The position numbers and the translations under genes are program-made. Positions 41,359 to 55,222 of a stretch of DNA of 64,000 nucleotides are shown here, in pieces. Within the stretch, counting starts at the first letter, position 1; every line of letters begins with the position of its first letter. Origin of the DNA: an uncultured Chlorobiaceae bacterium (lineage in GTDB: Bacteria; Bacteroidota; Ignavibacteria; UBA10030; SZUA-254). The stretch is from assembly GCA_964484465.1 (NCBI GenBank), contig CAZAFL010000007.1:16567-80566 (forward strand). The letters are read 5' to 3'. The notes under the pieces are model-generated. The model worked only from the letters and a program-made list of their open reading frames with translations. It was not told the DNA's origin and did no database searches.

Positions 41359-41985
41359 CTACCCTGCACACCAGTAAAACGTGGAATAGCCAGCGACAGA
41401 AACAGGAACCCAATGGCCACCGCGACGAAGCTGAGGCAAGCCCCACTGACCCGCGGGCAGGCGTGTACAAGAACCCGCCAAATAGAAGACGGGGGAAAAG
41501 CCAACACAGAAAACAAACACCGAAACGCCCAAGCGAGCGGCAAGGCGACACGCAAGCAGTGAACCACGAGAACAGGGGGATGAAAGAAAACATACTAAAG
41601 CAGACGGCTGGTTATGAGCAAGATGCTTGACCATTGCAACTGAACGTAACGCAAGACGTTGACGCAACCCAACAGTTGGAATCCCACCCGACCACCAGCG
41701 AACGGACGCCCCTTCACGAAGTGCAGTGAGAACTGAACGAACAGACGAAAGATAGCATGACCCTACCCCACCGTACCCAAATGCGCTGAAGATTGTGAGC
41801 CGACTCAATTCATGCTTTGGAACAGATAAAATAACTTGAGCGTCTGCACCAACTGAACAGCCAGCGGATAGTCTGGTGCGGGAAGTAGCAACAACAGATT
41901 GCACTATAGCTGAGACAAGAGGTTGAGCACTGACGGGAAGTTTACGAGAGCCGCAAAAGCCAACGGAGGCGAATGAAGAGAGCAT
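41359..41985 (-). CDS. SLOG/DprA-like Rossmann-fold protein
   Basis: VGFCGSR, AGCSVGADAQV, LALRSVAMV, SRGSLLACRLA; ATG at 41985 (ORF track starts at 42048). Confidence 0.6.
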   Translation of the reverse strand: MLSSFASVGFCGSRKLPVSAQPLVSAIVQSVVATSRTRLSAGCSVGADAQVILSVPKHELSRLTIFSAFGYGGVGSCYLSSVRSVLTALREGASVRWWSGGIPTVGLRQRLALRSVAMVKHLAHNQPSALVCFLSSPCSRGSLLACRLAARLGVSVFVFCVGFSPVFYLAGSCTRLPAGQWGLPQLRRGGHWVPVSVAGYSTFYWCAG

Positions 41986-42076
41986 GGAGAAGTATGTAAG
42001 TACGTGAGTAGATGAGTAGTTGAGAAACAAAATGAAAAAAAACAACAACAGGAATAATCACATTTTTCTTCGAAGG

Positions 42077-42580: not shown

Positions 42581-42625
42581 GTTGTGACGGACATTCGCTT
42601 CGCTCATGAGCTTGTCCGTCACAAC
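42581..42625 (+). repeat. Palindrome at start of cassette array (attC-related)
   Basis: GTTGTGACGGACA...TGTCCGTCACAAC 13 bp perfect stem; GTTGTGACGGACATTCGCTTCG recurs at 43542. Confidence 0.55.
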
Positions 42626-42652: not shown

Positions 42653-43369
42653 TTGTTTACAGATAAATACACATCCTTGGTGATTGTTTTTGGTGTGTAC
42701 GTCATTGCAATTCCACTTTTTGCTCTTGCCTACTTCCGTTTGTACAGACGCAATAGTGCGAATTTCGTCTTTGCTTCTGAAATATACATGTCTAGGTTGA
42801 CTGAGAAGAGAATTGAGACCAGTGAGAAAATCATGGGGCTCAGGATACTGATTAAATATTTTGCCGATTGTTCTGCACATCTCTTAGATAAGACAGTACG
42901 GATCCAACGTTCGATCGACAAGACAACAATCCATTTCAACAACAATCAAATTATTATCCTGGAGCGTTTCGTCCAACACGTTCCACAAGGAGGCGAATCT
43001 GAACTAGCTCCGTTTGTTCGTTTATATCGTCCAGATGGTGCCCAAGAATGGCAAGGGCTCGTAGTTGGTCATGGATTTCTTTCTGACTTCAATGATCCTG
43101 TAGAATATATTGGCTCCGTCGTCCAGCCGCTGAAGGATGACCTTGATAAGGTAGAAAGTTATCTCAAATCTCTCGATCAACCCAAACCGGTTATTTGGGG
43201 ATATTTGGACTTTTTGTATTTCAGCACGATCACCCAGTCCACTGTTGGATATGGTGACATTCTGCCCAACAGTAGCACAGTTCGTAGCGTCGTGATTGTT
43301 CAATTGATAATCACGTATGCTCTTTTGATTATTGTGTTGAATGTAGTATTGACCAAACTATCGTCATAG
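42653..43369 (+). CDS. Two-TM potassium-channel-family protein (cassette gene)
   Basis: YFSTITQSTVGYGDILP pore/selectivity-filter motif flanked by TM helices. Confidence 0.85.
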   Translation: MFTDKYTSLVIVFGVYVIAIPLFALAYFRLYRRNSANFVFASEIYMSRLTEKRIETSEKIMGLRILIKYFADCSAHLLDKTVRIQRSIDKTTIHFNNNQIIILERFVQHVPQGGESELAPFVRLYRPDGAQEWQGLVVGHGFLSDFNDPVEYIGSVVQPLKDDLDKVESYLKSLDQPKPVIWGYLDFLYFSTITQSTVGYGDILPNSSTVRSVVIVQLIITYALLIIVLNVVLTKLSS

Positions 43370-43417
43370 TATGTGCAAAGATTATGATCATAGTCAATTC
43401 AAATATTAGCGCGCTGC

Positions 43418-43548
43418 ACATAACACGCAAAATAATGTCGCTGATAATTTTACGGTTTGATAAGGCCTCGCTCAATGGTTTTGTTCATGGGCGATTGTCC
43501 AATGAATAGATTCGCAAAACCACTGCATTATTTTGCTAAACGTTGTGA
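43418..43548 (+). mobile_element. Integron attC site
   Basis: ACATAAC + GCAAAATAATG ... CATTATTTTGC + GTTGTGA. Confidence 0.75.
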
Positions 43549-43583
43549 CGGACATTCGCTTCGTCCCGCCGAAGAGCGGGATC

Positions 43584-43663
43584 GCACAACTACAGGAAGC
43601 ACGGCAATGTTCGCTTATGCCTGCGGCAAGCTCGCGCTGCGTGCTTGCCGCGCCACGTTAGCT
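43584..43663 (+). mobile_element. Integron attC site closing a gene-less mini-cassette
   Basis: GCACAAC ... GTTAGCT; GCACAAC is complementary to the upstream GTTGTG core. Confidence 0.6.
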
Positions 43664-43727
43664 GCCATGCTGGTGGATTTGTTTCCTGACTTAATCAACA
43701 GCCAACTAATAATTGAAGGAGTTCATA

Positions 43728-44333
43728 ATGGTTGACCTAATTAAAGATGTCGTGTCCGCACCTTTGTCAACAATTTTAGTCGTTGCGGGAATCACATGTG
43801 TAGGCTTTGCGATCGTCGGCCGTTACAAAAATGTTCTCCGACTGGTCGCGTGGCAAAGGGTTTGTTTTGCCTTACTGGGAATCGCACTATTTGGTTGTGT
43901 CTTGTGGGATCGAGGATATTTTGGCGGTAATGCCCCTATCAAGTATAAAATGTTTGGATTAGGTATTACAAAGGGAAACCCAACGTCGGACTATTTTGAA
44001 ACTGTCGACTTCATTCCGGGAAAAACTCACGATGGGGAAAATGAACTATTGCATCTAAGAGCCAGGAAAGCAGTCGATATCTCCAGAGGTTTTGTGGGAG
44101 ACAAACATCAGTCCCGTAATGCGCCTCTCCCCGATTCTCTGCAGCTACGTGCCTCGGAGGAACTGATGATCTTTACTAATGCTCGCTTTGGCGTCATTCC
44201 GCCGGGGATTCGAGTGGTTGAACTTTTCAGCAAGGGTGGCTTTTGGAAACAAAAAGACGGCGAATCGGATGGAGTGGTCCTTACCAATAAATCCGGGGAT
44301 GAAATGCTAAGCTTTTCATACAGAGTGCCATAA
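43728..44333 (+). CDS. Hypothetical membrane-anchored cassette protein
   Basis: AAGGAG RBS before ATG 43728; two N-terminal TM segments; bounded by attC sites. Confidence 0.75.
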   Translation: MVDLIKDVVSAPLSTILVVAGITCVGFAIVGRYKNVLRLVAWQRVCFALLGIALFGCVLWDRGYFGGNAPIKYKMFGLGITKGNPTSDYFETVDFIPGKTHDGENELLHLRARKAVDISRGFVGDKHQSRNAPLPDSLQLRASEELMIFTNARFGVIPPGIRVVELFSKGGFWKQKDGESDGVVLTNKSGDEMLSFSYRVP

Positions 44334-44371
44334 TATGCCTAAGTATTTTAACAAAAAGCTCGCAGCACGGC

Positions 44372-44505
44372 AGCTAACACGGCAAATAACGACGCTGGAA
44401 TGAAGAGCCAGAGAAATAAGAGCCTCGCTCCACCGTTTTGCTCCACGAAATATTTGTCTATTTGTAGTTCGCAAAACGGCGGCGTTATTTGCCGAGACGT
44501 TAGCC
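44372..44505 (+). mobile_element. Integron attC site
   Basis: AGCTAAC ACGGCAAATAACG ... CGTTATTTGCCG AGAC GTTAGCC; GGCAGCTAAC is the exact complement of GTTAGCTGCC at 43657. Confidence 0.9.
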
Positions 44506-44525
44506 GCAATTGCCACTGAACACCA

Positions 44526-45659
44526 ATGGACATTCTCTACTACCCGAATCTGTACGTTTCTGACGAGCACACCTTGAAATCTCTTCTCTTGTTTTGGGGT
44601 GACGTTCGGACAATCGTTCCTCCCTCTACAAAGCACTGGATCGAGTCGTATCTTAACGGCAGGACCAACGCACATGACCCCTCCTTGGAACTCGTCAAGA
44701 AAGTCAATGATATTGCCGGTCGGTCGGCAGTTGATTTTGTCGTTATCTCCGATGAAGAACGCCATCGCTCAACTCAGAAGATGATGCGACTTCTTGATCA
44801 ATGGGGAGCAGACTCGCATTTCTTTGACCAATACCGAATCAATTCGATCGATGACCTAATAGGCAAGACCATCGAATACTATTGGTTCTTGCATGAGAAA
44901 CTGGAGCAACCCCTCGTTCAACGACTAGCTTCTGAGAATCTCGCCGTCAACGTAGCCCCTGGTGAAATGGTGAGCTTCAAAGAAATTGGCCACACGTATA
45001 TGTCAATCCTCGGAGAGGAAATCCGTACGGGTAGGAACCTTCCCTTAGTCACCGACCAAGAATTGCTCGTGATACCAAGGATGTACTCACAATACACACG
45101 AGCGGCACTTCCGAATCAGGTGCATTACGATGGATATCAACTTGTCGGGCTTGCCGTACCCGATGTTTTCTTGGGAAAGAAAGAGCTAGGGAAATTGAGC
45201 TTCAAGCGGATACTTGAGATTCGAAATGATGTCCTGCCCCTCGCTGAAGCCTATCACTCCGAAATTTCCTCCTATCAGGGGCGGATCAACGCACTTGCCA
45301 ACGCGGCGCAAGAGAAGGAAGCCTTCGACTTGTTTCTTGAACTCTGTAATCGTATCGCGCATTCATTCCATCCGTTTGCGAAGGAGTATGGCAAGATACT
45401 TCGATTCTTTTCACGGTCGCAGAACATCACTCTGTTGACAGGGATCGCCCTGCCTACCATAAAGTTGCTTCTGGAAAAAGCGGATGTTGAAAAGGTCTGT
45501 GAAATTGCGGCAATATCTACGACGGCGGCCAATTACTACATCGAATCACACAACGTTAAGGGGGGCTTCGAGTTTCTGTCAACACTAAATCGATCAATAC
45601 GTCGGAAACTGCTGGCCAACCGCTTTCACGTACTCGTACCGAAAGTTTTGCGAGGATAA
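44526..45659 (+). CDS. Hypothetical cassette protein (possibly DUF6236-like)
   Basis: N-terminal LYYP...LKSLLLFW..V.TIVP pattern; bounded by attC cores. Confidence 0.65.
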   Translation: MDILYYPNLYVSDEHTLKSLLLFWGDVRTIVPPSTKHWIESYLNGRTNAHDPSLELVKKVNDIAGRSAVDFVVISDEERHRSTQKMMRLLDQWGADSHFFDQYRINSIDDLIGKTIEYYWFLHEKLEQPLVQRLASENLAVNVAPGEMVSFKEIGHTYMSILGEEIRTGRNLPLVTDQELLVIPRMYSQYTRAALPNQVHYDGYQLVGLAVPDVFLGKKELGKLSFKRILEIRNDVLPLAEAYHSEISSYQGRINALANAAQEKEAFDLFLELCNRIAHSFHPFAKEYGKILRFFSRSQNITLLTGIALPTIKLLLEKADVEKVCEIAAISTTAANYYIESHNVKGGFEFLSTLNRSIRRKLLANRFHVLVPKVLRG

Positions 45660-45673
45660 TCAATGGCAACTGC

Positions 45674-45697
45674 GGCTAACACGGCAAATAACGTCGC
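45674..45697 (+). mobile_element. Truncated attC (left arm only)
   Basis: GGCTAACACGGCAAATAACG nearly identical to the left arm at 44372; flank complementary at 16/17 nt to GTTAGCCGCAATTGCCA at 44499; no right arm found. Confidence 0.7.
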
Positions 45698-45904
45698 TGG
45701 GAACATTGGCTCTACCTGGTTCAATCGCCAAGAAAACAGATTGGTAGACCGCCATCTCTTCTGTGTTGATGCTTTACCTCGGCGTTTCATTATCATTTAT
45801 GTTCATTCTGGCAATCTTCCTCATGTTCTCCGGGCTCATCGAAAAAGGATAAAGTTCTAAAGAAGTGATCGCAACCAATTTGAAAGAATTCTAACAGGAC
45901 ATCC

Positions 45905-47593
45905 ATGTCATATCTTAGTCTGTCTGTGCGAGAAGCCATCAATCTTGTTAACGCCCCCGTCAATGGGTGGTTCCTGCCATCCATCCAGCGACCCTATGTT
46001 TGGGGAAGTCGGTATGAAAGTGAGCTATACATCTGCAAGTTATTCGACTCTTTGTTGCGGGGTTATCCCATCGGCGGACTGATCGTCTGGAACACAAAAG
46101 AGGAAGTTCCGTTCAGAGAATTCATGCATGACTACCACAATGCTTCCATCCCAACACAGGTCGACAAGGGTCAGTGGAAGAGGCCGGACAAGTGGCTTGT
46201 GTACGACGGACAACAACGTTTACAGACTTTGTTTTCGTGCCTCCGGTACACTTTCAATGGAAAGGTGCTCATCTTCGATCTGCTTTTTGACCTGGACAAA
46301 GAGGACCGGGAGATGGATGAAACAGGTTTTTCTTTCGTCGGTAAGAACGATTCGACTGAAGCCCATCTTGTTCGACTCAATTCCCTATTCACGCAAAAGC
46401 CCGACCAAGACCCTGAGTTCGAGGAGCAGATATTGGCTAGCCTTGGTTCACTTTCCAAGGAGCAAACGACTCTAGTTAAGAAGAACCTCAAACGTCTGTG
46501 GAAGGTGTTTGTGGAAACGGACAAGAAATCACTCGCCTATTTCCCCATCGAAAACAAGAGAGAGGAAGAAGTTAATGAAGTCTTCCAAAGATTAAATACC
46601 GGCGGTGTTCCTCTCTCGCTTGCCGACTTGGTTTTATCACGCATCAAGGAGGACTTCTTTGACTTCGAGGAAAACCTGCAAATGTTTTCCAGAGACATTT
46701 ACAGCCACACCACCAACGGATACACTTTCTCTCACTACGAAATTCTTCAACTTATTTATCTCATCCACAAAGGAACTATGAGAATCGACCCAAAACAAGT
46801 CAATTCTACGAAGGACACAAAGGCGATGAATGACATCTGGCTGAAGCTCAAACCGTCTCTGGATAGCTTCTTCGTAGACTTCATTTGGGGACAATTCAAA
46901 ATCAACAATTCTTCCATCGTTCCCCGCCAGAGAGCCCTTCTTCCTCTTATCGTGTATTTCTTTGAGCTGTACAACAATGGTGTCTCGTTCAAAAAGCTGA
47001 AGCCTGAAGCGTTACTCTTGCTGAACCAATATTTCATTCTCTCCCAAGTCAACGATTGGAGCCTACAATCGCTCATCGACAATTTCAGCAAGACCATACT
47101 GGACAAATCAAAGAAGTCCGATGGCTACTTCGATTTCCCACTCAACGATTTCATCGCCTCGCTCTACAAGACAAAGAAGCGAGAAACACAGTTGCTTGAA
47201 GCTCGCTTTACTGAATACACGTGGTTTTCACTGAAGGTTCTCACGCCCCAAAGGGTTTACCAATTCGATCCAGATTCATCGGGAAGATTCAGTCCGGAGA
47301 TTGACCACATTTTTCCTATGAAGCTCGAAGATCAAACCGATGAGTACTATGAATCGGTGGACATTATCTGGAACATGCAACCTGTAAAAGGCGACATAAA
47401 TAACTACAAGCGGCGAAAGCATCCGCTTGAATTCTTCACCGGAGATGGGCACAAGTTCTTGAAGGACTATGATTTTCTCCCGACTCATGACTTATCCGTC
47501 GAAGTCTGGAACCAACCAATTCCGTTCATCAAGGTGCGGCGCGTCAAGATGATGAAATTCCTGAAAGATGAATATGGCTTGGTTCTCAAATAG
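45905..47593 (+). CDS. GmrSD-type (DUF262 + DUF1524/HNH) modification-dependent restriction protein
   Basis: LPSIQRPYVW, DGQQRLQTL, FQRLNTGGVPLS, EIDHIFP...N. Confidence 0.85.
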   Translation: MSYLSLSVREAINLVNAPVNGWFLPSIQRPYVWGSRYESELYICKLFDSLLRGYPIGGLIVWNTKEEVPFREFMHDYHNASIPTQVDKGQWKRPDKWLVYDGQQRLQTLFSCLRYTFNGKVLIFDLLFDLDKEDREMDETGFSFVGKNDSTEAHLVRLNSLFTQKPDQDPEFEEQILASLGSLSKEQTTLVKKNLKRLWKVFVETDKKSLAYFPIENKREEEVNEVFQRLNTGGVPLSLADLVLSRIKEDFFDFEENLQMFSRDIYSHTTNGYTFSHYEILQLIYLIHKGTMRIDPKQVNSTKDTKAMNDIWLKLKPSLDSFFVDFIWGQFKINNSSIVPRQRALLPLIVYFFELYNNGVSFKKLKPEALLLLNQYFILSQVNDWSLQSLIDNFSKTILDKSKKSDGYFDFPLNDFIASLYKTKKRETQLLEARFTEYTWFSLKVLTPQRVYQFDPDSSGRFSPEIDHIFPMKLEDQTDEYYESVDIIWNMQPVKGDINNYKRRKHPLEFFTGDGHKFLKDYDFLPTHDLSVEVWNQPIPFIKVRRVKMMKFLKDEYGLVLK

Positions 47594-47613
47594 CGATGAG
47601 GGCTTCAAACAGC

Positions 47614-47680
47614 ACATAACAGCTGTAAGAGTGACATGCTGAGTCGGGGATGAAAAAGAAAGTAACGTCTAGCGTTAAGC
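47614..47680 (+). mobile_element. Degenerate attC-like site
   Basis: ACATAAC just after the gene stop and GTTAAGC downstream; internal arms pair poorly. Confidence 0.3.
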
Positions 47681-47786
47681 TCAGCAGTTTTGCTCGCACG
47701 CCCATTGGCCCATGCAAAGGTTCGCAAAGCTGCTGACATTTGACGCCAAACGTTGGGAAACCATTTGCTGCATTCAGCGTAACTTG

Positions 47787-49163
47787 ATGAAAGATAATCA
47801 GAAAAAAGAGGGAGAGCGTTGGGACATTGAGTGCCTCAGGCGCGAAGTCCCGGATTTGCGATTAGGCGAAATTCTGAGCGATGAACGACCTGACTTCATC
47901 GTTCGTTCAACCGATCCAAAATTGGGCATCGAGGTCACTCGACTATTCAAGAAGAAGCGAGGGTCTGGAAAGCCTATGCAGGCATTTGAGTCAGAAAGGC
48001 GTGCGATAGTCAAGAGAGCCCATCATCTTTTTGAGCGAAACTGTGCGGTCAAGTTGAAGGTGGCGGTCTTTTTCTCAGGAACCGACGCCCCGTCGAAGCG
48101 GGTGAGAGAGAAAATCGCAATTCAGATCGGTGATATAGTTCGTTCCTGCATGCCACTCGATGACAATTCGGTCCGAGTTGACTCTCAGACCAGCGAACTC
48201 ATTTTTCCAATTGAAGTCTCGTCAATTCGTGTTACTCGATTCGGACCATTCATTCAGAGTATATGGTACGTACCAGTGGCCGGTTGGGTTCAAGAAGATT
48301 TCGTTGAAGAGCTCCAAGATATAATTGATGATAAAGCGAAGCTCTTCCCAAAATACTTGGCAAAATGCGATCGTTGCTGGTTGCTCATCATCGCGGATGC
48401 GACGGGTGAATCAGCGTTCTTTGAAGGTTCAGGCGAGACAATTGGGCATGAGTATCACTCTCCATTTGAACGAACGTACTTGTATGAAACCTTATCTCAA
48501 AAAGTGTTCCGGCTGCTCACCGTGGAACCAGTGTCTCGAATGAAAAATCCGTTTGTTCAACAGACATCCGAAGTTGATCGACTGAGAAACTCGCTTAGGG
48601 AGCATCTCGCACAAATGTGCAGAATTTTGCAGGCACCAGATCGTGATACTACCAATGCTTATATCTTCATAGCGGGGCAGCTGCGCGCATTGCTTTGTGA
48701 TCAGTATGCCATCATGGTCAAATACGCCGAGATTCAGAACCACGAGCTTAAAATTTGGGGCCCCAAGCCAAAGGAAATCATAGAAGGACATAACGTACTA
48801 ATGAGTGTTCACTTCCTCGTTGCGTCTTATGAAAGCAATCCGTTGATGAGAGAGATGAGCATCAAAGAGTATTTGCATACTCCCATTGGCGTCGCAAATT
48901 GGGAGAAGTACACCCCGTCGGAGATCATCAAACTCGTGGCAAACAAGGAGGGCGCAGCTCACCTCGACCCACACCAAAACGAGAAGCTCGAAGCCATCAA
49001 GAGCACGTTCGTTGTGAAAGCTTCACCCTCTGGTCGTGCTGATGACGACAAGCATGTTATATTGCGGACTGCAGTTCTTCAGATTGGGGCGTGGGCAAGT
49101 CGCTCTATCGAGGACCTCCTCGCACTACCTTTAGATCATAACAACAAGGCGGGCGCGAGTTGA
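47787..49163 (+). CDS. Two-domain hypothetical protein; N-terminal PD-(D/E)xK-like nuclease fold
   Basis: ERPDFIV...LGIEVTRL; second domain with ANKEGAAHLDP; ATG 47787 (ORF track starts at 47712). Confidence 0.6.
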   Translation: MKDNQKKEGERWDIECLRREVPDLRLGEILSDERPDFIVRSTDPKLGIEVTRLFKKKRGSGKPMQAFESERRAIVKRAHHLFERNCAVKLKVAVFFSGTDAPSKRVREKIAIQIGDIVRSCMPLDDNSVRVDSQTSELIFPIEVSSIRVTRFGPFIQSIWYVPVAGWVQEDFVEELQDIIDDKAKLFPKYLAKCDRCWLLIIADATGESAFFEGSGETIGHEYHSPFERTYLYETLSQKVFRLLTVEPVSRMKNPFVQQTSEVDRLRNSLREHLAQMCRILQAPDRDTTNAYIFIAGQLRALLCDQYAIMVKYAEIQNHELKIWGPKPKEIIEGHNVLMSVHFLVASYESNPLMREMSIKEYLHTPIGVANWEKYTPSEIIKLVANKEGAAHLDPHQNEKLEAIKSTFVVKASPSGRADDDKHVILRTAVLQIGAWASRSIEDLLALPLDHNNKAGAS

Positions 49164-49304: not shown

Positions 49305-49419
49305 GGGCATTTCCTGTTGCCACATAAATTCAAAGAATTATGATTATTCTATCGGCAACAGGATATGCCCTTTGGACAGGCTTTGGCGCTAAAAGCGCCA
49401 GATTTTCAAATGAGTGCTT
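49305..49419. repeat. Structured repeat family 2, copy A
   Basis: GGGCATTTCCTGTTGCC...GGCAACAGGATATGCCC; then TGGCGCT-AAA-AGCGCCA; then GAGTGCTT. Confidence 0.85.
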
Positions 49420-49554
49420 ATCCCGCTGGAGTGAATTTGCAGCGGGATAGGCACAATTCTAATTCTATGCTGGCGTTTTTCTCTCTCTATTATATAGACC
49501 ACGCCCTAGTCAAAGACCATTTACAGCTATTTTGCACTGTTAGGTGCTGATTTG

Positions 49555-50073
49555 TTAACGTATTACAAGATGTGTCCCTCGAAGGATCTCAACGCCTTTC
49601 GGAATGACTCCAGTGGCTTTAACATGTTCGAGAATTTTTGCCTTGTCTACTTCCACTTTGATTTTCAAGAACTGCTCATCGAGTTCATCCATGTTTTTAA
49701 CATCAACACCCGACTGGCTTTGGGCAACGTATATCGTGAATAAAGCGTATTTGATTTTTTCTGAACCCGACGCTTCCATGCTGACTTTGATATAGTTTTT
49801 CAGCCAATCGATGCGATTGTCGAACGAACGTTTGCGTTCAGAAAGGCGTTTCGCTTCGCCCGCCAGCGCATCCCGCTGTGCTTCGAGATTCCTAATGAAC
49901 TTCACGATGTCGGTCACTTTGTCAACAAACTTCATGTTGAGGTGGTCGAGAGCGTCGCGGAACTGTTCGAGGCGTTCTTTGCCTTCGCCGCTGGAATTGT
50001 CGGATATTTCAGATTCATCGAGTTTGTTTAATACTATGAGTTCGCTTGTGATTTCATAAAGAGGTTCGTTCAT
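49555..50073 (-). CDS. Siphovirus Gp157-family protein
   Basis: K...IVKFIRNLEA...EAKRLSERKR...NRIDWLKNYI...VDKAKI...GVEI...HLVIR. Confidence 0.85.
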   Translation of the reverse strand: MNEPLYEITSELIVLNKLDESEISDNSSGEGKERLEQFRDALDHLNMKFVDKVTDIVKFIRNLEAQRDALAGEAKRLSERKRSFDNRIDWLKNYIKVSMEASGSEKIKYALFTIYVAQSQSGVDVKNMDELDEQFLKIKVEVDKAKILEHVKATGVIPKGVEILRGTHLVIR

Positions 50074-50192
50074 TGGTCGTTCGCCTTCATGGATGGTTTG
50101 ATTTGTTGATAGTTAATGATTGTGAATTTGTTATACCAAATCGAGGTTAGAATTTCGGAACTTTCTTTGGAAGAAAGTTCCACAAAGAACAT

Positions 50193-50358
50193 CCGCAATC
50201 GTAAACGCACAGCAACGGAATGTCAGTCCACGATAAAAAACGATTTCATCTGCCTCATTTAACCTGATATTCACGGACATCGGTCGTCGATGAAATCGCA
50301 AAGCTCAGATTGATATTCCAACCGCACAGGCTAAACGATTGCGGAGGCGGCGTTTGAA
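50193..50358. promoter_or_regulatory. Structured repeat family 1, copy 1 (upstream of gp157)
   Basis: Stems CCGCAATCGT/ACGATTGCGG and CGATTTCATC/GATGAAATCG; minus-strand CTGACA-N17-TACGAT. Confidence 0.7.
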
Positions 50359-50481
50359 AGGAATAGGTTGAGGGGCATGGAGTGCTGGTTGTATGCCGTC
50401 GTCGATTTCAAATTCTTACCTTGCAATCGGCAAGGGCGGATATGGTTCCGCCCTTGTTTTGCATCTATGGAGAAAAACCCA

Positions 50482-51186
50482 TTAGAACGGTACGTCGTCC
50501 TTTTCGCCTTCCACTTCTGCTGCGACCAGAGCAACCTGAGATGAATGTTCCCTGTTGTCCCCCACAAGAGCGGATGTCTGCTTCGTGCGGCGTGTTCGCT
50601 TGTTATTGCCGTTACCGTTTCCATTGCCGTTGGAAAGGCAATGTTGAGCGGTAAGCTGGCCGGTACGAGACAAGAACAATGTAACACCGATTTTTTCGAT
50701 GTCAGTGTTTCTCCACTCTACCCCGGGAATCAAACGGGTAATATCGACAGCATCGAGCAACGATTGATGCATCACTAACGTATCGCCGGAAAACCCCTCC
50801 GGAGTTAAGTTTGGGGGCATGACTATCTCCGCAGGTGGCTGTAATAGCTGTTGGGCGATCGTTTTTCCGTTTACGTTGTGAGCTGTATCCGACACCGCAC
50901 CTTTTTTCTGGTCAATCACATTGATAACCGTGAATGGTTCTCCCTTTTGTGGCGTGATCGTTTCTTTCAGCAGGCTTAATGTGTCGCCTACTTTCACATC
51001 GAACTTGCGAAATTGCTTTTCGAGCCGGTCTGAAACTTTCAGCGCCTTCTCTTTTCCGTCGTGAAGGACAGTATAGAGCTGATAGGAACCGAACTGTCCT
51101 TCCTTTTTCAGACCAGTCGCAAATTTTAAGGTGACATCCACAAGCTGACGCTCGGGGATTTGGACAAATTCTCTCTGGTTATTCAT
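50482..51186 (-). CDS. Phage-type single-stranded DNA-binding-like protein
   Basis: AAAGGAG RBS before ATG 51186; beta-rich N-terminus and acidic tail ending EKDDVPF (SSB-Ct-like). Confidence 0.55.
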   Translation of the reverse strand: MNNQREFVQIPERQLVDVTLKFATGLKKEGQFGSYQLYTVLHDGKEKALKVSDRLEKQFRKFDVKVGDTLSLLKETITPQKGEPFTVINVIDQKKGAVSDTAHNVNGKTIAQQLLQPPAEIVMPPNLTPEGFSGDTLVMHQSLLDAVDITRLIPGVEWRNTDIEKIGVTLFLSRTGQLTAQHCLSNGNGNGNGNNKRTRRTKQTSALVGDNREHSSQVALVAAEVEGEKDDVPF

Positions 51187-51314
51187 TGTACCACTCCTTT
51201 GGTTGGTATATTGAAAGTTGATTGTAGAAATCTTATACCAAATTGGAAGGCATTTCATTCGGAATTTACTTTCTCTTTGAAGAGAAAGTAACAAAGATCC
51301 CGCATTTGGCGGGA

Positions 51315-51479
51315 CGCAATCGTAAACGCACGGCTTTGTAAAGGCTGACTCGGCTAAGAGGCGATTTCATCTATCGACCAGAATGAGTTATTTGAATGCG
51401 TCCGCTTTCGATGAAATCGCAAAGCTCCGTTTGATGTCCGACCGCTCACGCTCTACGATTGCGGAGGCAGGCCTTTGAA
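51315..51479. promoter_or_regulatory. Structured repeat family 1, copy 2 (upstream of SSB-like gene)
   Basis: Stems CGCAATCGTA/TACGATTGCG and GCGATTTCATC/GATGAAATCGC; TTGATG-N17-TACGAT in the right arm. Confidence 0.7.
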
Positions 51480-51510
51480 GCAAAAAAATTTCTTTTATTC
51501 TGCTGTAGGA

Positions 51511-52104
51511 TTACAGACTAAGCTCGAGCTGAAATTGTGAAATTCCGGAGATTCTTGAAGAAAGGCGATTAAGGGCATTCTTCACAGTTTGAACCTGCAC
51601 CGATAGGCACTGAGAAATTTCTTCATCACCAAAACCGCTAACTTTCATATCAATGATGGTTCGTTCATTCTGTGACAGGTGTGAAAGTTTTTGCTCAATA
51701 TCGATCTTGAATGAGACCTCGGTTTCAATATCGATGGCTGCGCTGATATTATCGGCGTATGTATCGTCTTCACCTTCAAAGACCGGGTTATGAACGGAGT
51801 ACAGTTCCAACCTTCCTTCGTAGTAATTGCGTTTGTTGAACACATCCCTCTTGTTAGTTCGTGAGTACCCTCGCATTTCGATTTGCACTTCCGCTCTGCG
51901 GAATTTCATATAATTGATGACAAGGGGTAACTCCATGATCTTACCCTCACCCGCCTTGCGCGTGAATACCTCGTATGCAAGAACTATAAGGTCCTGTACT
52001 TTATCCTCGAATTGTGGATGACGCTTATCGATCATTCGTTGCGCTGCTTTGTATAAACTTGGTGTGTAATTTGAGAAAATGGAGTTGAGTTGTTGGTGGG
52101 ACAT
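51511..52104 (-). CDS. Phage-like sigma-70-family protein
   Basis: C-terminal sigma-4-like LSQNERTIIDMKVSGFGDEEISQCL...TVKNALNR. Confidence 0.65.
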   Translation of the reverse strand: MSHQQLNSIFSNYTPSLYKAAQRMIDKRHPQFEDKVQDLIVLAYEVFTRKAGEGKIMELPLVINYMKFRRAEVQIEMRGYSRTNKRDVFNKRNYYEGRLELYSVHNPVFEGEDDTYADNISAAIDIETEVSFKIDIEQKLSHLSQNERTIIDMKVSGFGDEEISQCLSVQVQTVKNALNRLSSRISGISQFQLELSL

Positions 52105-52182
52105 ATTGGCCTCCTGAATTGGGGTAATGGTTAAATGATTACTGGTTTATTGATAGAAATAGATCTTATTATTCTTGATCAG

Positions 52183-52234
52183 GTCCTTCGACTCATCCCG
52201 TCCCGATATATCGGGACGGGATTCGCTCAGGACG
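52183..52234. repeat. REP-like element with inserted 28 bp perfect palindrome
   Basis: GTCCTTCGACTC[ATCCCGTCCCGATATATCGGGACGGGAT]TCGCTCAGGAC. Confidence 0.6.
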
Positions 52235-52322
52235 AATTTTTCGTCCTCACATATCGGTACTCAAAATTCGATTGACCGCTTGTAAGAAATCATCATTTTT
52301 ATATAGAGACCGAAGTCAAGGG

Positions 52323-52378
52323 TCCCGCCCCGAGAATCGGGGCGGGATTTAAATGCCGTCACCTGTTTTGTGACGGCA
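52323..52378. repeat. Two adjacent GC-rich hairpins
   Basis: TCCCGCCCCGA-GAA-TCGGGGCGGGA and TGCCGTCAC-N7-GTGACGGCA. Confidence 0.7.
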
Positions 52379-52507
52379 GACTCGCCCTTGACGAGGTCAT
52401 TGAGAACAAATTACAATTACAAGCGGTCAATCAGCTCGAATGACCGGCGTTCTTTTGAGATGATTGAATGATGGGATTGAGATGCGGGATTACCATGGCA
52501 GTCGGAA

Positions 52508-52621
52508 CGGCATTTCCTGGATTTTAAAAATCCTATAACAACAATGATTGTTTTTTAAAATCCAGGATATGCCGACGCGAACACTATTGCGCCGAAGGTG
52601 CAATTTCTTCAATTGAGTGTT
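52508..52621. repeat. Structured repeat family 2, copy B
   Basis: CGGCATTTCCTGGATTTTAAAAA...TTTTTAAAATCCAGGATATGCCG; TTGCGCC-GAA-GGTGCAA; GAGTGTT. Confidence 0.85.
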
Positions 52622-52759
52622 TGTGCGAGAAGAACCATAGGGTACGGCAGAACAATGAAAGGCTATCATAAAACCTGTCTACCCTGTGGTTTTGAGCGCA
52701 CATACACAATTCTATTGATCAGAATCAGGGAATGAGTGTGATTCGTATGGGTGGGGTTT

Positions 52760-52873
52760 CGGCATTTCCTGCCATTAAGAAAATCGAGAAAAAGCTATAG
52801 TGTTTTCTAATGGCAGGATATGCCGGCGTTGCAGTATTTGCCCCAAAGGGGCAAAGTTAACGAAGGAGTGCTT
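52760..52873. repeat. Structured repeat family 2, copy C
   Basis: CGGCATTTCCTGCCATTA...TAATGGCAGGATATGCCG; TTTGCCCC-AAA-GGGGCAAA; GAGTGCTT. Confidence 0.85.
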
Positions 52874-52982
52874 GCTTGGACGAAGTGAAAGCATGCACAA
52901 ATTAATAACGCGTGGTGGGTTGGGGTTTGAACGATGTACAGCGGGATGGAATTACTTAGTATCCAGATCAGCTAATTCATTT

Positions 52983-54266
52983 TCAATTGTTATGCTCCTG
53001 AAGTATGGTAAACAGTTTATCCTTTGTTTCTTTCACAGAACGTTCCAAATGCGCAGTTTCTCTTAAATGAAAAAACAACGTGTCGGAAAGAGTAAGAAAG
53101 TGGATGGACATGAACAACAATACTTTGCCGACCATCGCGACAGTAACGAGAACAATCTTGATACCTTCATTCCAGTTATGTAACATGCCAATGCCTTCAC
53201 CTTGCGGTAAAATCAGGGTGAACGAACCCTGGATTCCAAAATATAAGAACAGAGCAACCACTATAGATCGAGGGAGAGAGAAAAATTTGCTCGTGGACGT
53301 GCTCACGAAAAATGCCATTGCGACAGTAGCCAGAACCCCTGCCATCATGCTAAATACAATGGAAATGATCTGACTTTCCTCAGAATGAGATTTTGACGAC
53401 CATTGGAGAATTATTTCAAGAGAAAATATCATAAGAAAGATCACTACCGGTACTTGCCAATTCATTTTTCTTTCCCTAATCACCACCTCTTTCTCCCTGA
53501 AACCACTCGAAGGAAGAAAGCCCGGAAGTGGGTCGCTCTCTTGTTTCTGCACTGTATCGACTGTTCTATCTGTGAGTATTAAAAAACATATGTAAAGGTA
53601 TACACTATCAAGGTTGTTCAGAAGGTCAAGTATTGGATTTACCCAAAATTCTTTAAGCTGAAGGTATTCAAAAATGGAAAAAGAGAAATATAGCAAGCTC
53701 CACAAAATCCAAACCACTTGCCAAAACTCCCAGAACTGCTTGGTAGCAATTGATGCTCTTTGGTCTTCCGGTAAAGAGAGAGGCTGGAGGCCAAATCGTA
53801 TCACGAAGAGAACAAAGGTTGCTGCAATCCCCTGAATTCCAAAGGAAAGCACCTTAAAAGGTGGAAAGTTAGGATTGACTGTAAGGACCAACGCCATCAT
53901 GAGGATCGAACCCAATGTAAGACCATAGATTATGAATCCAGCGGGATAACGCAAGGCCGATGAGACCCATTCCCCGAAGGTATTCTCTCTATTTGGCCTG
54001 GGGAGAAAAATGGCCCTCTGGACAAGTAATGAGAGTCGTTTTGTCAATGTGACCGCCGGGAAATGAGGTCTACGCGTATGTTGTGATTCTATTTGAAACC
54101 AGGCGGAATCAAACTCTCGCACCGAATGGATGAGTTTCGTGCAATCTTTGCATTGCGCAAGATGGTTGTCCATAGCAAGGTTATCATCATCCGATAATAA
54201 CCCATCAACATACTTGCACGCATTTTCGAATGTAACATGCAGGTCTTTTTCGAATTCCCTGGTCAT
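52983..54266 (-). CDS. Zinc-finger (HxxxCxxC) anti-sigma factor fused to a polytopic membrane domain
   Basis: N-terminal HLAQCKDC; about 7-8 hydrophobic segments; overlaps the sigma gene stop (ATGA). Confidence 0.8.
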   Translation of the reverse strand: MTREFEKDLHVTFENACKYVDGLLSDDDNLAMDNHLAQCKDCTKLIHSVREFDSAWFQIESQHTRRPHFPAVTLTKRLSLLVQRAIFLPRPNRENTFGEWVSSALRYPAGFIIYGLTLGSILMMALVLTVNPNFPPFKVLSFGIQGIAATFVLFVIRFGLQPLSLPEDQRASIATKQFWEFWQVVWILWSLLYFSFSIFEYLQLKEFWVNPILDLLNNLDSVYLYICFLILTDRTVDTVQKQESDPLPGFLPSSGFREKEVVIRERKMNWQVPVVIFLMIFSLEIILQWSSKSHSEESQIISIVFSMMAGVLATVAMAFFVSTSTSKFFSLPRSIVVALFLYFGIQGSFTLILPQGEGIGMLHNWNEGIKIVLVTVAMVGKVLLFMSIHFLTLSDTLFFHLRETAHLERSVKETKDKLFTILQEHNN

Positions 54267-55222
54267 TTCATAACCAACCCTCTCATGACAAATTTTTGCT
54301 TTGTATCTTCAAGCACCGAGTGAGACCAATGACTTATTATGCTTGCTTCATCTTCAATGTTGTTTCCTCTTTCCCCGTAATACATTGCGAGGAAAGTAGT
54401 TCCTACCACTAGTTCGAGATATTCCGCCAGCCTCTTTTGGTTAACTCTGTCCTTTTCCTTTATGGTCTGGTTTAGTTTTTTTTCCATCTTTTTTCGGAGA
54501 GCTACGAATTCATTTGTAAGATCGCATGTAGCATAAGATTTCTCAATATCAGCGGCCAGCAACATAAGTTTGGTAGCAGATTTCTTCAACGCGATGTCGG
54601 CCGGCTTCCATCCCAACAAGCGATTATAGAAAAAAACCAGGAAGCACCAGGGGTAACAAACCTCAACTGCAATTGCAATAATCCGCTGAATCCTAGCGTC
54701 TGGCTCCAAGTCTTTATTCCGGGGAGTATCATCAAGCGATCCGCCCGCTTCATCCCCCTCTTTCGAATGGAACCGCTTCTTGAAAAAATTAATAGCCGTA
54801 TTCCTTATTACTATGAATAACCAAGTGGAAAACCTCGCTTCCGGAATAAATCTTGGTGCAGCGAGTTCAACTTTAATCCAAACTTCCTGACCAATGTCAT
54901 TGCAATCGTCTTTGTTTGCCCAGTCGATATATCGAACCTGATGACTAATAATCCGCTCAACATATCTTCTGTAAAGCTCATAAAGATAAGCTGTCGATCC
55001 TTGACGATACAATTCAAGTTGAACAGTTATATGATCATAGAGTAATATTTTCAAATGACTGAGTGCATTTTCTGAAACCTCAAAAGAATGTTTGAGATAA
55101 TCTGATTTTGTTGCCTGTAAGATCGCTTCACGTTTCTCTGTCGGTACAAAAGCAAAACTCATGAGGTGCCCAGTGAGCGCCTGCACATATTTCGTCCAGA
55201 TATCCTCTGTGGGTTCTTTCAT
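54263..55222 (-). CDS. Atypical ECF sigma factor with N- and C-terminal extensions
   Basis: DIGQEVWIKV...RFSTWLFIVIRNTAINFFKK region 2; degenerate region 4 LLGWKPADIA. Confidence 0.75.
   Translation of the reverse strand: MKEPTEDIWTKYVQALTGHLMSFAFVPTEKREAILQATKSDYLKHSFEVSENALSHLKILLYDHITVQLELYRQGSTAYLYELYRRYVERIISHQVRYIDWANKDDCNDIGQEVWIKVELAAPRFIPEARFSTWLFIVIRNTAINFFKKRFHSKEGDEAGGSLDDTPRNKDLEPDARIQRIIAIAVEVCYPWCFLVFFYNRLLGWKPADIALKKSATKLMLLAADIEKSYATCDLTNEFVALRKKMEKKLNQTIKEKDRVNQKRLAEYLELVVGTTFLAMYYGERGNNIEDEASIISHWSHSVLEDTKQKFVMRGLVMK

Follow-up and report, generated by a model that had tools for sequence, protein, structure and literature searches.

An undescribed three-hairpin repeat with an invariant T.T mismatch beside a sigma/SSB-like/Gp157 gene module in an uncultured Chlorobiaceae bacterium

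The Locus and the Repeat Unit

The sequence analyzed here, referred to below as the window, is a 64,000-nt (64-kb) stretch of contig CAZAFL010000007.1 from an uncultured Chlorobiaceae bacterium. It carries three copies (A, B, and C) of an intergenic repeat, termed family 2, next to genes for a sigma-factor-like protein, a protein resembling single-stranded DNA-binding proteins (SSBs), and a protein of the Sipho_Gp157 family. The three repeats are copies of an undescribed, evolutionarily conserved structured element formed by three hairpins (P1, P2, and P3) and a short 3' tail; its most likely working form is a folded single strand, either of DNA, as a priming signal, or of RNA. The main features of the locus are as follows (lengths of proteins in amino acids, aa):

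41359-42048, - strand: distantly DprA-like backbone gene on the far side of the cargo, a short homolog of genes encoding 340-457 aa in relatives
49306-49461, + strand: copy A, full unit (P1 49306-49369, P2 49382-49402, GAGTGCT 49412-49418, P3 49414-49454, tail AATTCTA 49455-49461)
49555-50073, - strand: Sipho_Gp157 family gene, 172 aa (PHROG 253, labelled 'Mu Gam-like end protection')
50485-51186, - strand: SSB-like gene, 234 aa (predicted N-terminal OB-fold domain, disordered linkers, C-terminal DDVPF)
51511-52104, - strand: sigma-factor-like gene, 197 aa, the first of the conserved module
52105-52508, - strand: proximal structured non-coding region, from copy B to the sigma start codon (folding z-score of approximately -6.6 to -8.9 in the window)
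52509-52714, + strand: copy B, full unit (P1 52509-52573, P2 52587-52603, GAGTGTT 52615-52621, long P3 52617-52707, tail AATTCTA 52708-52714)
52761-52905, + strand: copy C, full unit (P1 52761-52824, P2 52837-52855, GAGTGCT 52866-52872, short P3 52868-52898, tail AAATTAA 52899-52905)

The pattern of the P1 base, GGCATTTCCTG-N42/43-CAGGATATGCC, matches the window at exactly three places, each on the + strand. It was absent from all 100 dinucleotide shuffles, and the chance expectation is zero, whereas the half-sites alone occur elsewhere in the window at chance frequency. The three copies in one orientation that a preliminary description of this DNA had reported were thus recovered, its coordinates being one base low. 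P1 consists of an 11-bp base with a T.T mismatch, invariant among the copies (identity 22/22), and of upper stems that are unrelated in sequence yet self-pair (TTGCC/GGCAA, GATTTTAAAAA/TTTTTAAAATC, and CCATTA/TAATGG), just as described there. The triloop hairpin P2 and the GAGTGYT motif follow in every copy, with P2 starting 12-14 nt after P1 rather than 11-13 nt; in copy B, it is a C-GAA-G triloop hairpin with one G.T pair. The unit is longer than was first stated, since it also includes the third hairpin, P3 (31-91 nt), in which a GTGYT 5' arm pairs with an RGCAC closing arm, and the 3' tail (AATTCTA for copies A and B, AAATTAA for copy C). Folding energies relative to shuffled sequences correspond to z-scores of -7.1, -10.4, and -4.1 for copies A, B, and C, respectively.

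Copy A lies between a convergent gene encoding 483 aa (+ strand) and the Gp157 gene (- strand), and copy C ends approximately 78 nt short of the stop codon of an anti-sigma gene. The similarity between the copies begins at the first base of P1 and ceases at the tail. The flanks of copy A have nothing in common with those of copies B or C; therefore, neither a promoter nor a terminator travels with the unit.

An A-rich motif, AAAGGCTAT (or GCTAT/ACTAT), is often present in the apical loops of both P1 and P3, e.g., at 52795-52803 and 52660-52668 in the window and in the related loci L013, L015, L016, and L019 (see below), so that unpaired CTA occurs three times per unit. Open reading frames (ORFs) overlapping the units (49365-49550 and 52800-53066, as well as gene calls in loci L010 and L029) were rejected as spurious, because neither their frame nor their length is conserved. 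Long-range pairing between the 3' arms of P1 (GTGCC) and P3 (GGCAC) was ruled out, since P1 of the window has become ATGCC with no matching change in P3.

Conservation and Covariation in Related Loci

Approximately 100 homologs of the SSB-like protein were found, all in metagenomes or metagenome-assembled genomes. The comparison set comprised 13 distinct related metagenomic loci (designated by L numbers) and 15 distinct element sequences. The three-hairpin element was first read by eye in the gene-free region of each locus, and the loci were then searched with a covariance model that covers P1, P2, and GAGTGCTT and was built from eight sequences. This model, a check proposed in the preliminary description, matches the element in all 13 loci (E = 2e-23 to 3e-7).

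In every locus, the element occupies the end of the gene-free region farthest from the sigma gene, at a distance from that gene of 0.4-0.65 kb in the window and 0.45-1.3 kb in relatives, and the length of the unit varies between 145 and 250 nt. All 18 model matches, including the relocated copy A and the tandem pair of L033, are antisense to the sigma/SSB-like/Gp157 module; thus, all copies lie on the template strand of the sigma, SSB-like, Gp157, and DprA-like genes. Eleven of the 13 loci have one copy, located upstream of the sigma gene, whereas L033 has the tandem pair (3942-4071 and 4672-4805, - strand) in an enlarged gene-free region of 1.4 kb; as with copies B and C of the window, the P1 stems of this pair differ above a common GGCAC/T.T base. 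The bracketing of the sigma, SSB-like, and Gp157 genes by copies A and B/C, to which the preliminary description drew attention, is real in the window and is not conserved. Since it is peculiar to the window, excision between copies A and B/C, as proposed there, finds no comparative backing.

A selfish dispersed repeat (REP/BIME- or MITE-like) or a chance palindrome might come to mind for a multi-copy intergenic palindromic element. However, the window contains only three copies in 64 kb, all within one island and sharing a structural core but not the overall sequence, and no RAYT or transposase gene was found. Furthermore, the element of the 13 loci is orthologous, as a rule single-copy, and fixed in position, although the flanking proteins share only 45-68% identity. 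Copy number and orthology effectively refute this explanation, which we consider very improbable. A match to a REP class or an insertion sequence end, named earlier as the result that would speak against a new element, was looked for and not found.

The covariation analysis bears out the claim that the structure is under selection. Standard pairing was observed in 89% of the P1/P2 cells, compared with 33-50% in slid-partner controls, and both partners have changed in 15 of the 23 pairs (15 distinct sequences). The covariation score of P1/P2 (0.437, vs. 0.128 in shuffles) was reached by none of 500 shuffles; these P1/P2 figures are somewhat inflated, because the alignment was fitted to the covariance model. 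The base of P3, a separate and trivially aligned set, shows 96% pairing and double changes at three of eight pairs; its fifth pair is U.G in 11 sequences and U.U in two.

The T.T mismatch of P1 is present in every sequence except that of L019 (T.G). The P1 base itself varies among genomes by compensatory changes (GGCAT/ATGCC in the window, GGCAC/GTGCC, GCAA/TTGC, and GCACA/TGTGC). Its identity within the window combined with compensatory variation between genomes fits sequence-specific recognition by a co-evolving factor, which we infer from the sequence comparison. The tail, 2-4 nt past P3, is TCTA in 12 of 13 aligned sequences and ACTA in one of the two L033 copies (L033b), whereas copy C has TTAA. 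Recurrent GA/GAA internal loops characterize P3 of the main clade, and among the short P2 loops, GAA or AAA triloops with a C-G closing pair predominate; such a triloop is a classic, very stable DNA mini-hairpin.

Functional Strand and the Choice between DNA and RNA

All 11 units tested fold better on the + strand of the window, with a mean advantage of -8.2 kcal/mol under RNA parameters and -2.7 kcal/mol under DNA parameters. On the complementary strand, the conserved U.G pairs of P3 turn into C.A mismatches. Wobble pairs on the element strand, counted as G.T vs. A.C, amount to 28 vs. 11 for internal pairs and 20 vs. 12 for pairs stacked on shared helices, and CTA, recurrent in the loops of P1 and P3 and in the tail, occurs 33 times compared with 12 for its complement TAG; these counts are not independent, as the sequences are related. 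The functional strand is likely, although not certainly, the + strand of the window, i.e., the template strand of the module genes. Of the three candidate functions put forward earlier (non-coding RNA, recombination site, and single-stranded DNA signal), all stand as candidates, now narrowed to action as a single strand with + polarity.

As RNA, the element would be a new structured non-coding RNA (ncRNA) made from the + strand, with transcription diverging from that of the sigma gene and converging on that of the neighboring cargo gene. It would form either a separate RNA of 150-250 nt or the 3' domain of an RNA spanning the whole structured non-coding region, and might act through the conserved single-stranded segments TCAAATGAGUGCUU and GAACGAAC..CACAAAUCUA or by binding an island protein. 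We regard this reading as tentative, but as only slightly less probable than a DNA signal. The combination of covariation, conserved unpaired nucleotides, and helices of variable length is the usual signature of a functional RNA; the unpaired positions are 46% A, G.U is tolerated on the + strand, and GA/GAA internal loops occur in the main-clade P3. A sigma-70-like sequence, TTGACG-18-TACAAT, precedes copy B by approximately 90 nt on the + strand, and copy A could ride on the 483-aa gene's 3' untranslated region. On the other hand, this promoter is not conserved (the TTGACA...TAnATT of relatives has a spacing of 22 nt, and promoter-like matches are at the shuffled background), no terminator follows the unit, the duplicated unit is promoterless, and the sequence upstream of copy A is unlike that of B and C. 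Triloops such as those of P2 are unusual in RNA, and the element has no relative in Rfam. We slightly favor DNA on account of the C-G-closed GAA/AAA triloops, the lack of promoter and terminator, the fixed polarity, including that of copy A, and the gene context.

Gene Module, Island Backbone, and Cargo

The order of the sigma, SSB-like, and Gp157 genes is conserved in all 13 loci, their proteins being 46-69% identical to those of the window (eight loci compared directly), and in every locus a gene-free structured region of 0.5-1.4 kb precedes the module. In its AlphaFold model, the 234-aa protein has a beta-barrel at the N-terminus, predicted with confidence, whose best matches in PDB are bacterial and human SSBs and PriB (probability 0.9-0.99, with weak E-values of approximately 3e-3), and its DDVPF tip resembles the acidic tail of SSB. 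On the basis of this model, the assignment as SSB-like is reasonable but not proven. A tblastn search of plasmids with this protein gave nothing, and an exact look-up of the Gp157 protein of the window returned no identical protein on record.

A conserved pair of backbone genes (340-457 aa and 65 aa) is located downstream of the Gp157 gene, in some cases beyond a second cargo block. Neither gene received an assignment from Pfam, PHROG, or PADLOC. The larger family is distantly DprA-like, with PF02481 matched by five of 34 members, and its profile found no match among PDB sequences. The 65-aa protein ends in G(E/S/V)GVPF (L013 9602-9799, L019 9224-9421, L016 9286-9483, and L012 9215-9412); its gene is missing from the window. 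Judging from their C-termini, two island proteins, the SSB-like and the 65-aa one, may imitate the SSB tail, through which primase, chi, RecO, and partners of this kind are recruited. A proteobacterial homolog of the DprA-like backbone gene was observed on plasmids of Nitrosococcus and methanotrophs; on the Nitrosococcus halophilus plasmid pNHAL01 (L034), it lies approximately 4 kb from Gp157-family and DUF932 genes, and the association therefore reaches beyond this clade.

The flanks of the relatives are occupied by defense genes that differ at almost every locus, including AbiEii, type I, type III, and Eco57I-type restriction-modification, SMODS, ThiF/Multi_ubiq, HNH, GmrSD, REase-ARP, and SNF2 with N6_Mtase. 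In the window, the position of the DprA-like homolog (41359-42048) indicates that the region 42.6-49.2 kb is an inserted cargo block, and copy A sits where this block joins the Gp157 gene. To the left of copy A, the + strand encodes the 483-aa protein, which has no assigned function, and a GmrSD-type nuclease (PADLOC HEC-05). The whole block (42653-49163, + strand) additionally codes for a K+-channel-like protein and unknown proteins of 206, 377, and 65 aa, and has repeats of its own, namely, a family of 32-nt repeats (43413, 44367, and 45669) and a 22-mer present in identical form at 42581 and 43542. Upstream of copies B and C, a pair of genes for an ECF-type sigma factor (319 aa) and a zf-HC2 anti-sigma factor (427 aa; together 52983-55222, - strand) fills the slot held in relatives by defense cargo (HNH, YdjM, AbiE, and others). 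A further ECF sigma factor is encoded at 10504-11172, and a type IX secretion system sorting domain is found among the ORFs of the window; taken with the sources of the homologs, this domain indicates a genome of the uncultured Ignavibacteria/Bacteroidota type.

The sequence homology between loci ends at TCTA in clade 2 and within approximately 15 nt of TCTA in clade 1, with unrelated cargo beyond. The element is thus the outermost conserved piece of the backbone, which raises the question of a structure-specific site for protein binding or recombination that, folded or as a cruciform, would serve the exchange of defense cargo at the backbone edge, in functional likeness to integron attC sites or IS200/IS605 ends. 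The junction position of copy A agrees with such a role, the P1 base (22/22 in the window, compensatory between genomes) suggests a sequence-specific trans-acting factor, and conserved mismatches are typical of hairpins read by recombinases. However, no integrase or transposase gene was found among the window ORFs scanned, and none lies beside the element in 12 of the 13 loci, L012 alone having one at a distance of 7 kb. The R/L cores of attC are absent, the relatives have no second site across the cargo, and an edge of homology is expected of any conserved unit next to a variable region. We therefore consider a recombination site unlikely. No tRNA genes flanking the islands were detected by tRNA scans, and the scanned ORFs of the window (130 aa or longer) include no reverse transcriptase.

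Adjacent Non-coding DNA and a Second Repeat Family

The proximal region between copy B and the sigma gene (52105-52508) contains nested long-range inverted repeats, ATTGACCGCTTGT/ACAAGCGGTCAAT and GACCTCGTCAAGGG/CCCTTGACTTCGGTC, as well as GC-rich hairpins, and this architecture is conserved in relatives. Outside the element, the gene-free regions ahead of the sigma gene in the window, L013 (4372-5118), L015 (4610-5294), and other loci have z-scores of -5 to -12 on both strands. Nested inverted repeats recur across loci (CTTGACCGCTG...CAGCGGTCAAG and GACCTTGTCAAGGG...CCCTTGACAAGGTC), and a conserved CCCTTGAC(A/T)-N12-TAAAAA immediately precedes the sigma gene. A purine-rich tract with degenerate GATTGA/GGAGGAT-like repeats is located directly 5' of P1 (52440-52508 on the + strand of the window; approximately 4480-4590 on the complement in L012), whereas the same tract is G-rich (GAGTGGGTGGCGTGGG) in the L013-L016 clade; it could represent iteron-like binding sites.

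A second repeat of approximately 250 nt, family 1, lies upstream of both the Gp157 gene and the SSB-like gene (50117-50363 and 51219-51483; sense strand -), its blocks being 72-93% identical; a related block is located upstream of the sigma gene in L010. Family 1 forms a long hairpin (CGCAATCGT...ACGATTGCG around GCGATTTCATC...GATGAAATCGC) and a short one (CTTTCT(C)TTC-AAAG-AGAAAG), followed by TTGGTATAA(G/C), a lookalike of an extended -10 box. Its resemblance to Frpo, or to a structured leader, is closer than that of family 2.

The position of family 2 between convergent or tandem transcription units, ahead of a leader rich in terminator-like hairpins, could also suit a cis-acting RNA structure, namely, a terminator or insulator, a stabilizer of 3' ends, or a put-like antitermination element of the sigma operon leader. 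On the module-sense strand, the complement of the tail (TAGAAT / TAGATTTG) resembles a -10 box or the -7 box of Bacteroidota. However, no T-run follows any of the hairpins, and no intrinsic terminator was called at P1, P2, or P3, on either strand. The module-sense strand would have U-rich loops and C.A mismatches in place of the conserved U.G pairs, and a transcript starting downstream of TAGAAT would drop the 5' arm of P3, whose base pairs covary. Cis-acting RNA thus ranks among the unlikely readings, slightly below a recombination site.

Comparison with Known Families

No Rfam 15 family matches the window or nine related loci at the gathering threshold, and at E<=10 the only hits are generic hairpin matches to miRNA models, all far below threshold, in agreement with the earlier remark that the repeat was not recognized as a known RNA. 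Megablast of the region against phages, plasmids, and Escherichia coli genomes gave nothing. Scans of viral, genome, and metagenome collections with the exact P1-base pattern returned chance matches only (L001-L009), which have neither the variable stem nor the downstream hairpins, and a scan of viral contigs for GAGTGCTTGTGAGTGAG gave a single chance match (L028) that is not matched by the covariance model. Promoter and terminator scans of the element produced totals at the shuffled background. The attC core sites RYYYAAC...GTTRRRY are absent from both strands, and no integrase domain was found in the window ORFs scanned. The features of REP/BIME, MITE, or insertion sequence ends are lacking as well, the three copies having unrelated variable parts and no RAYT or transposase having been found. 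The element is a member of no known family, and the nearest systems in terms of its putative action are single-strand initiation sites (ssi) of the G4 type and single-strand origins (sso).

The origin of phage G4 has three stem-loops with a primase start trinucleotide on their 3' side and needs only primase and SSB (PMC6783573). Similar to G4oric, the repeat has three predicted stem-loops on one strand, a candidate start trinucleotide 3' of them, and a size of the order of 150-250 nt; G4oric depends on SSB, and the repeat adjoins an SSB-like gene (PMC6783573; PMC2978363). In contrast, there is no sequence similarity, the trinucleotide is CTA/TTA instead of CTG, the DNA that hosts the element is not a known single-stranded DNA phage or plasmid, and P1, whose mismatched base is sequence-invariant, is much longer.

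The sso elements (ssoA, ssoU, ssoT, ssoW, and sso1 of ICEBs1) are likewise imperfect palindromes of approximately 160 nt or larger with one working orientation (PMC5703833; PMC8860593; PMC4595007). They resemble P1 in having a conserved loop-distal stem (RSB-like), variable paired stems, and a short semi-conserved loop motif (PMC8860593; PMC5703833), CS-6 being the motif with a role and location in the sso loop (PMC8860593). The RSB doubles as a recombination site (PMC5703833; PMC8860593; PMC4595007). Both sso and the element are often split from other replication functions by cargo cassettes. The differences are that the element, from another phylum, has no RSB or CS-6, no -35/-10 sequences in the stem, and no Rep, relaxase, or double-strand origin found nearby.

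Repeated structured elements of the template strand associated with early genes, including one for SSB, are also found in the Frpo/ssi promoters of conjugative plasmid leading regions (PMC11541004). These promoters look closer to family 1 and the sigma-leader hairpins than to family 2, which is not directly upstream of a gene and has no promoter hexamers in its stems; furthermore, no oriT or relaxase is known for the island. Integron attC sites share with the element a conserved base, a variable paired center, a conserved unpaired position, strand specificity, and a location at cargo boundaries, but the element lacks R''/L''/L'/R' boxes and IntI, occurs once per locus rather than once per cassette, and has two extra hairpins. 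The ncRNAs of the GOLLD/ROOL/HEARO class are similar as conserved multi-helix structures with A-rich loops that come from metagenomes and lie by mobile or defense genes; the element differs in matching no Rfam model and in having no evident promoter or terminator.

A Putative Single-Strand Priming Signal

We favor, with a rough probability of 0.37, the reading of the repeat as a strand-specific single-stranded DNA (ssDNA) priming signal similar to G4ori or to a single-strand origin. The repeat would be an initiation site (ssi/sso type) for complementary-strand synthesis, heading an 'establishment' module of genes for sigma, the OB-fold SSB-like protein with its acidic tip, Gp157, and the DprA-like protein, which would be part of an uncharacterized island in the genomes of Ignavibacteria/Bacteroidota-type bacteria. 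The + strand of the window would become single-stranded when this island is transferred or replicated, and the folded P1, P2, and P3 would keep SSB off. A host or island factor would read the sequence-invariant P1 base with its T.T mismatch, and the conserved CTA/TTA immediately 3' of P3 would serve primase or RNA polymerase as the start of a primer. From there, synthesis would proceed toward lower coordinates and convert the module into duplex DNA. The direction of copying from the + strand would be the same as that of the module's transcription.

Established above are the structure and its conservation, the constancy of its polarity and position, and the gene context. This context suggests the handling of ssDNA, comprising the OB-fold match to SSB and PriB, the DDVPF tip, the 65-aa protein ending in GVPF, and the DprA-like and Gp157 genes. 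With respect to the start site, d(CTA) is common to the DnaG primases of Firmicutes and Proteobacteria, whereas d(TTA) is used in Firmicutes (PMC2978363).

Several observations weigh against a priming signal. A scan of the window ORFs with 130 aa or more and of the DNA within 6 kb of the module in the 13 loci, which did not reach the island ends, detected no gene for a relaxase, rolling-circle Rep, type IV secretion system, integrase, or transposase; hence, there is no indication that the island exists as ssDNA at any time. Many of the loci lie within contigs of 0.4-1.1 Mb. The gene context is not unambiguous, since DprA-like domains also occur in defense systems such as ShosA (PMC12961424). 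The start-site data for DnaG come from other phyla and may not apply to the host of the element. Copies B and C gave nothing in blastn searches (word size 11) of 50,697 phage and 72,556 plasmid records. P1-P3 contain no -35/-10 pair in the stem, the only such pair, at chance level, being in the P1 loop of copy A. The CS-6 motif (consensus TAGCGT/A) is absent from 10 of 11 units, its single match, in L010, being outside the loop. The A-rich loops, with a composition typical of structured RNAs, favor RNA. Finally, the wobble bias becomes modest after allowing for shared ancestry, and shuffles show that the folding asymmetry of the neighboring non-coding region reflects base composition alone, so that fold energy carries little weight for the choice of strand in that region.

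In a broader version, which appears possible though doubtful, the element together with the hairpin-rich region of approximately 1 kb would constitute the ssDNA control region of an unrecognized family of islands that enter or replicate as ssDNA and shuttle defense genes. Such islands would carry an establishment kit comprising the sigma factor, the SSB-like and 65-aa proteins with SSB-type tips, a Gam-like Gp157, and the DprA-like protein, as well as a new class of single-strand origin, whose mismatched hairpin base would co-evolve with its recognition factor.

Implications

If the repeat serves priming or establishment, no single-strand origin would have been described before it in the FCB group, and it would point to a widespread island backbone, so far unannotated, on which defense systems are anchored (restriction-modification of type I, type III, and the Eco57I type, GmrSD, AbiE, CBASS-like, and ubiquitin-like). 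This would provide a handle on the movement of these islands. If it is RNA, it would represent a new family of conserved ncRNAs linked to this backbone. In both cases, the invariant mismatched base of P1 poses a defined problem of protein-nucleic acid recognition, and the covariance model is a specific marker for such islands in metagenomes.

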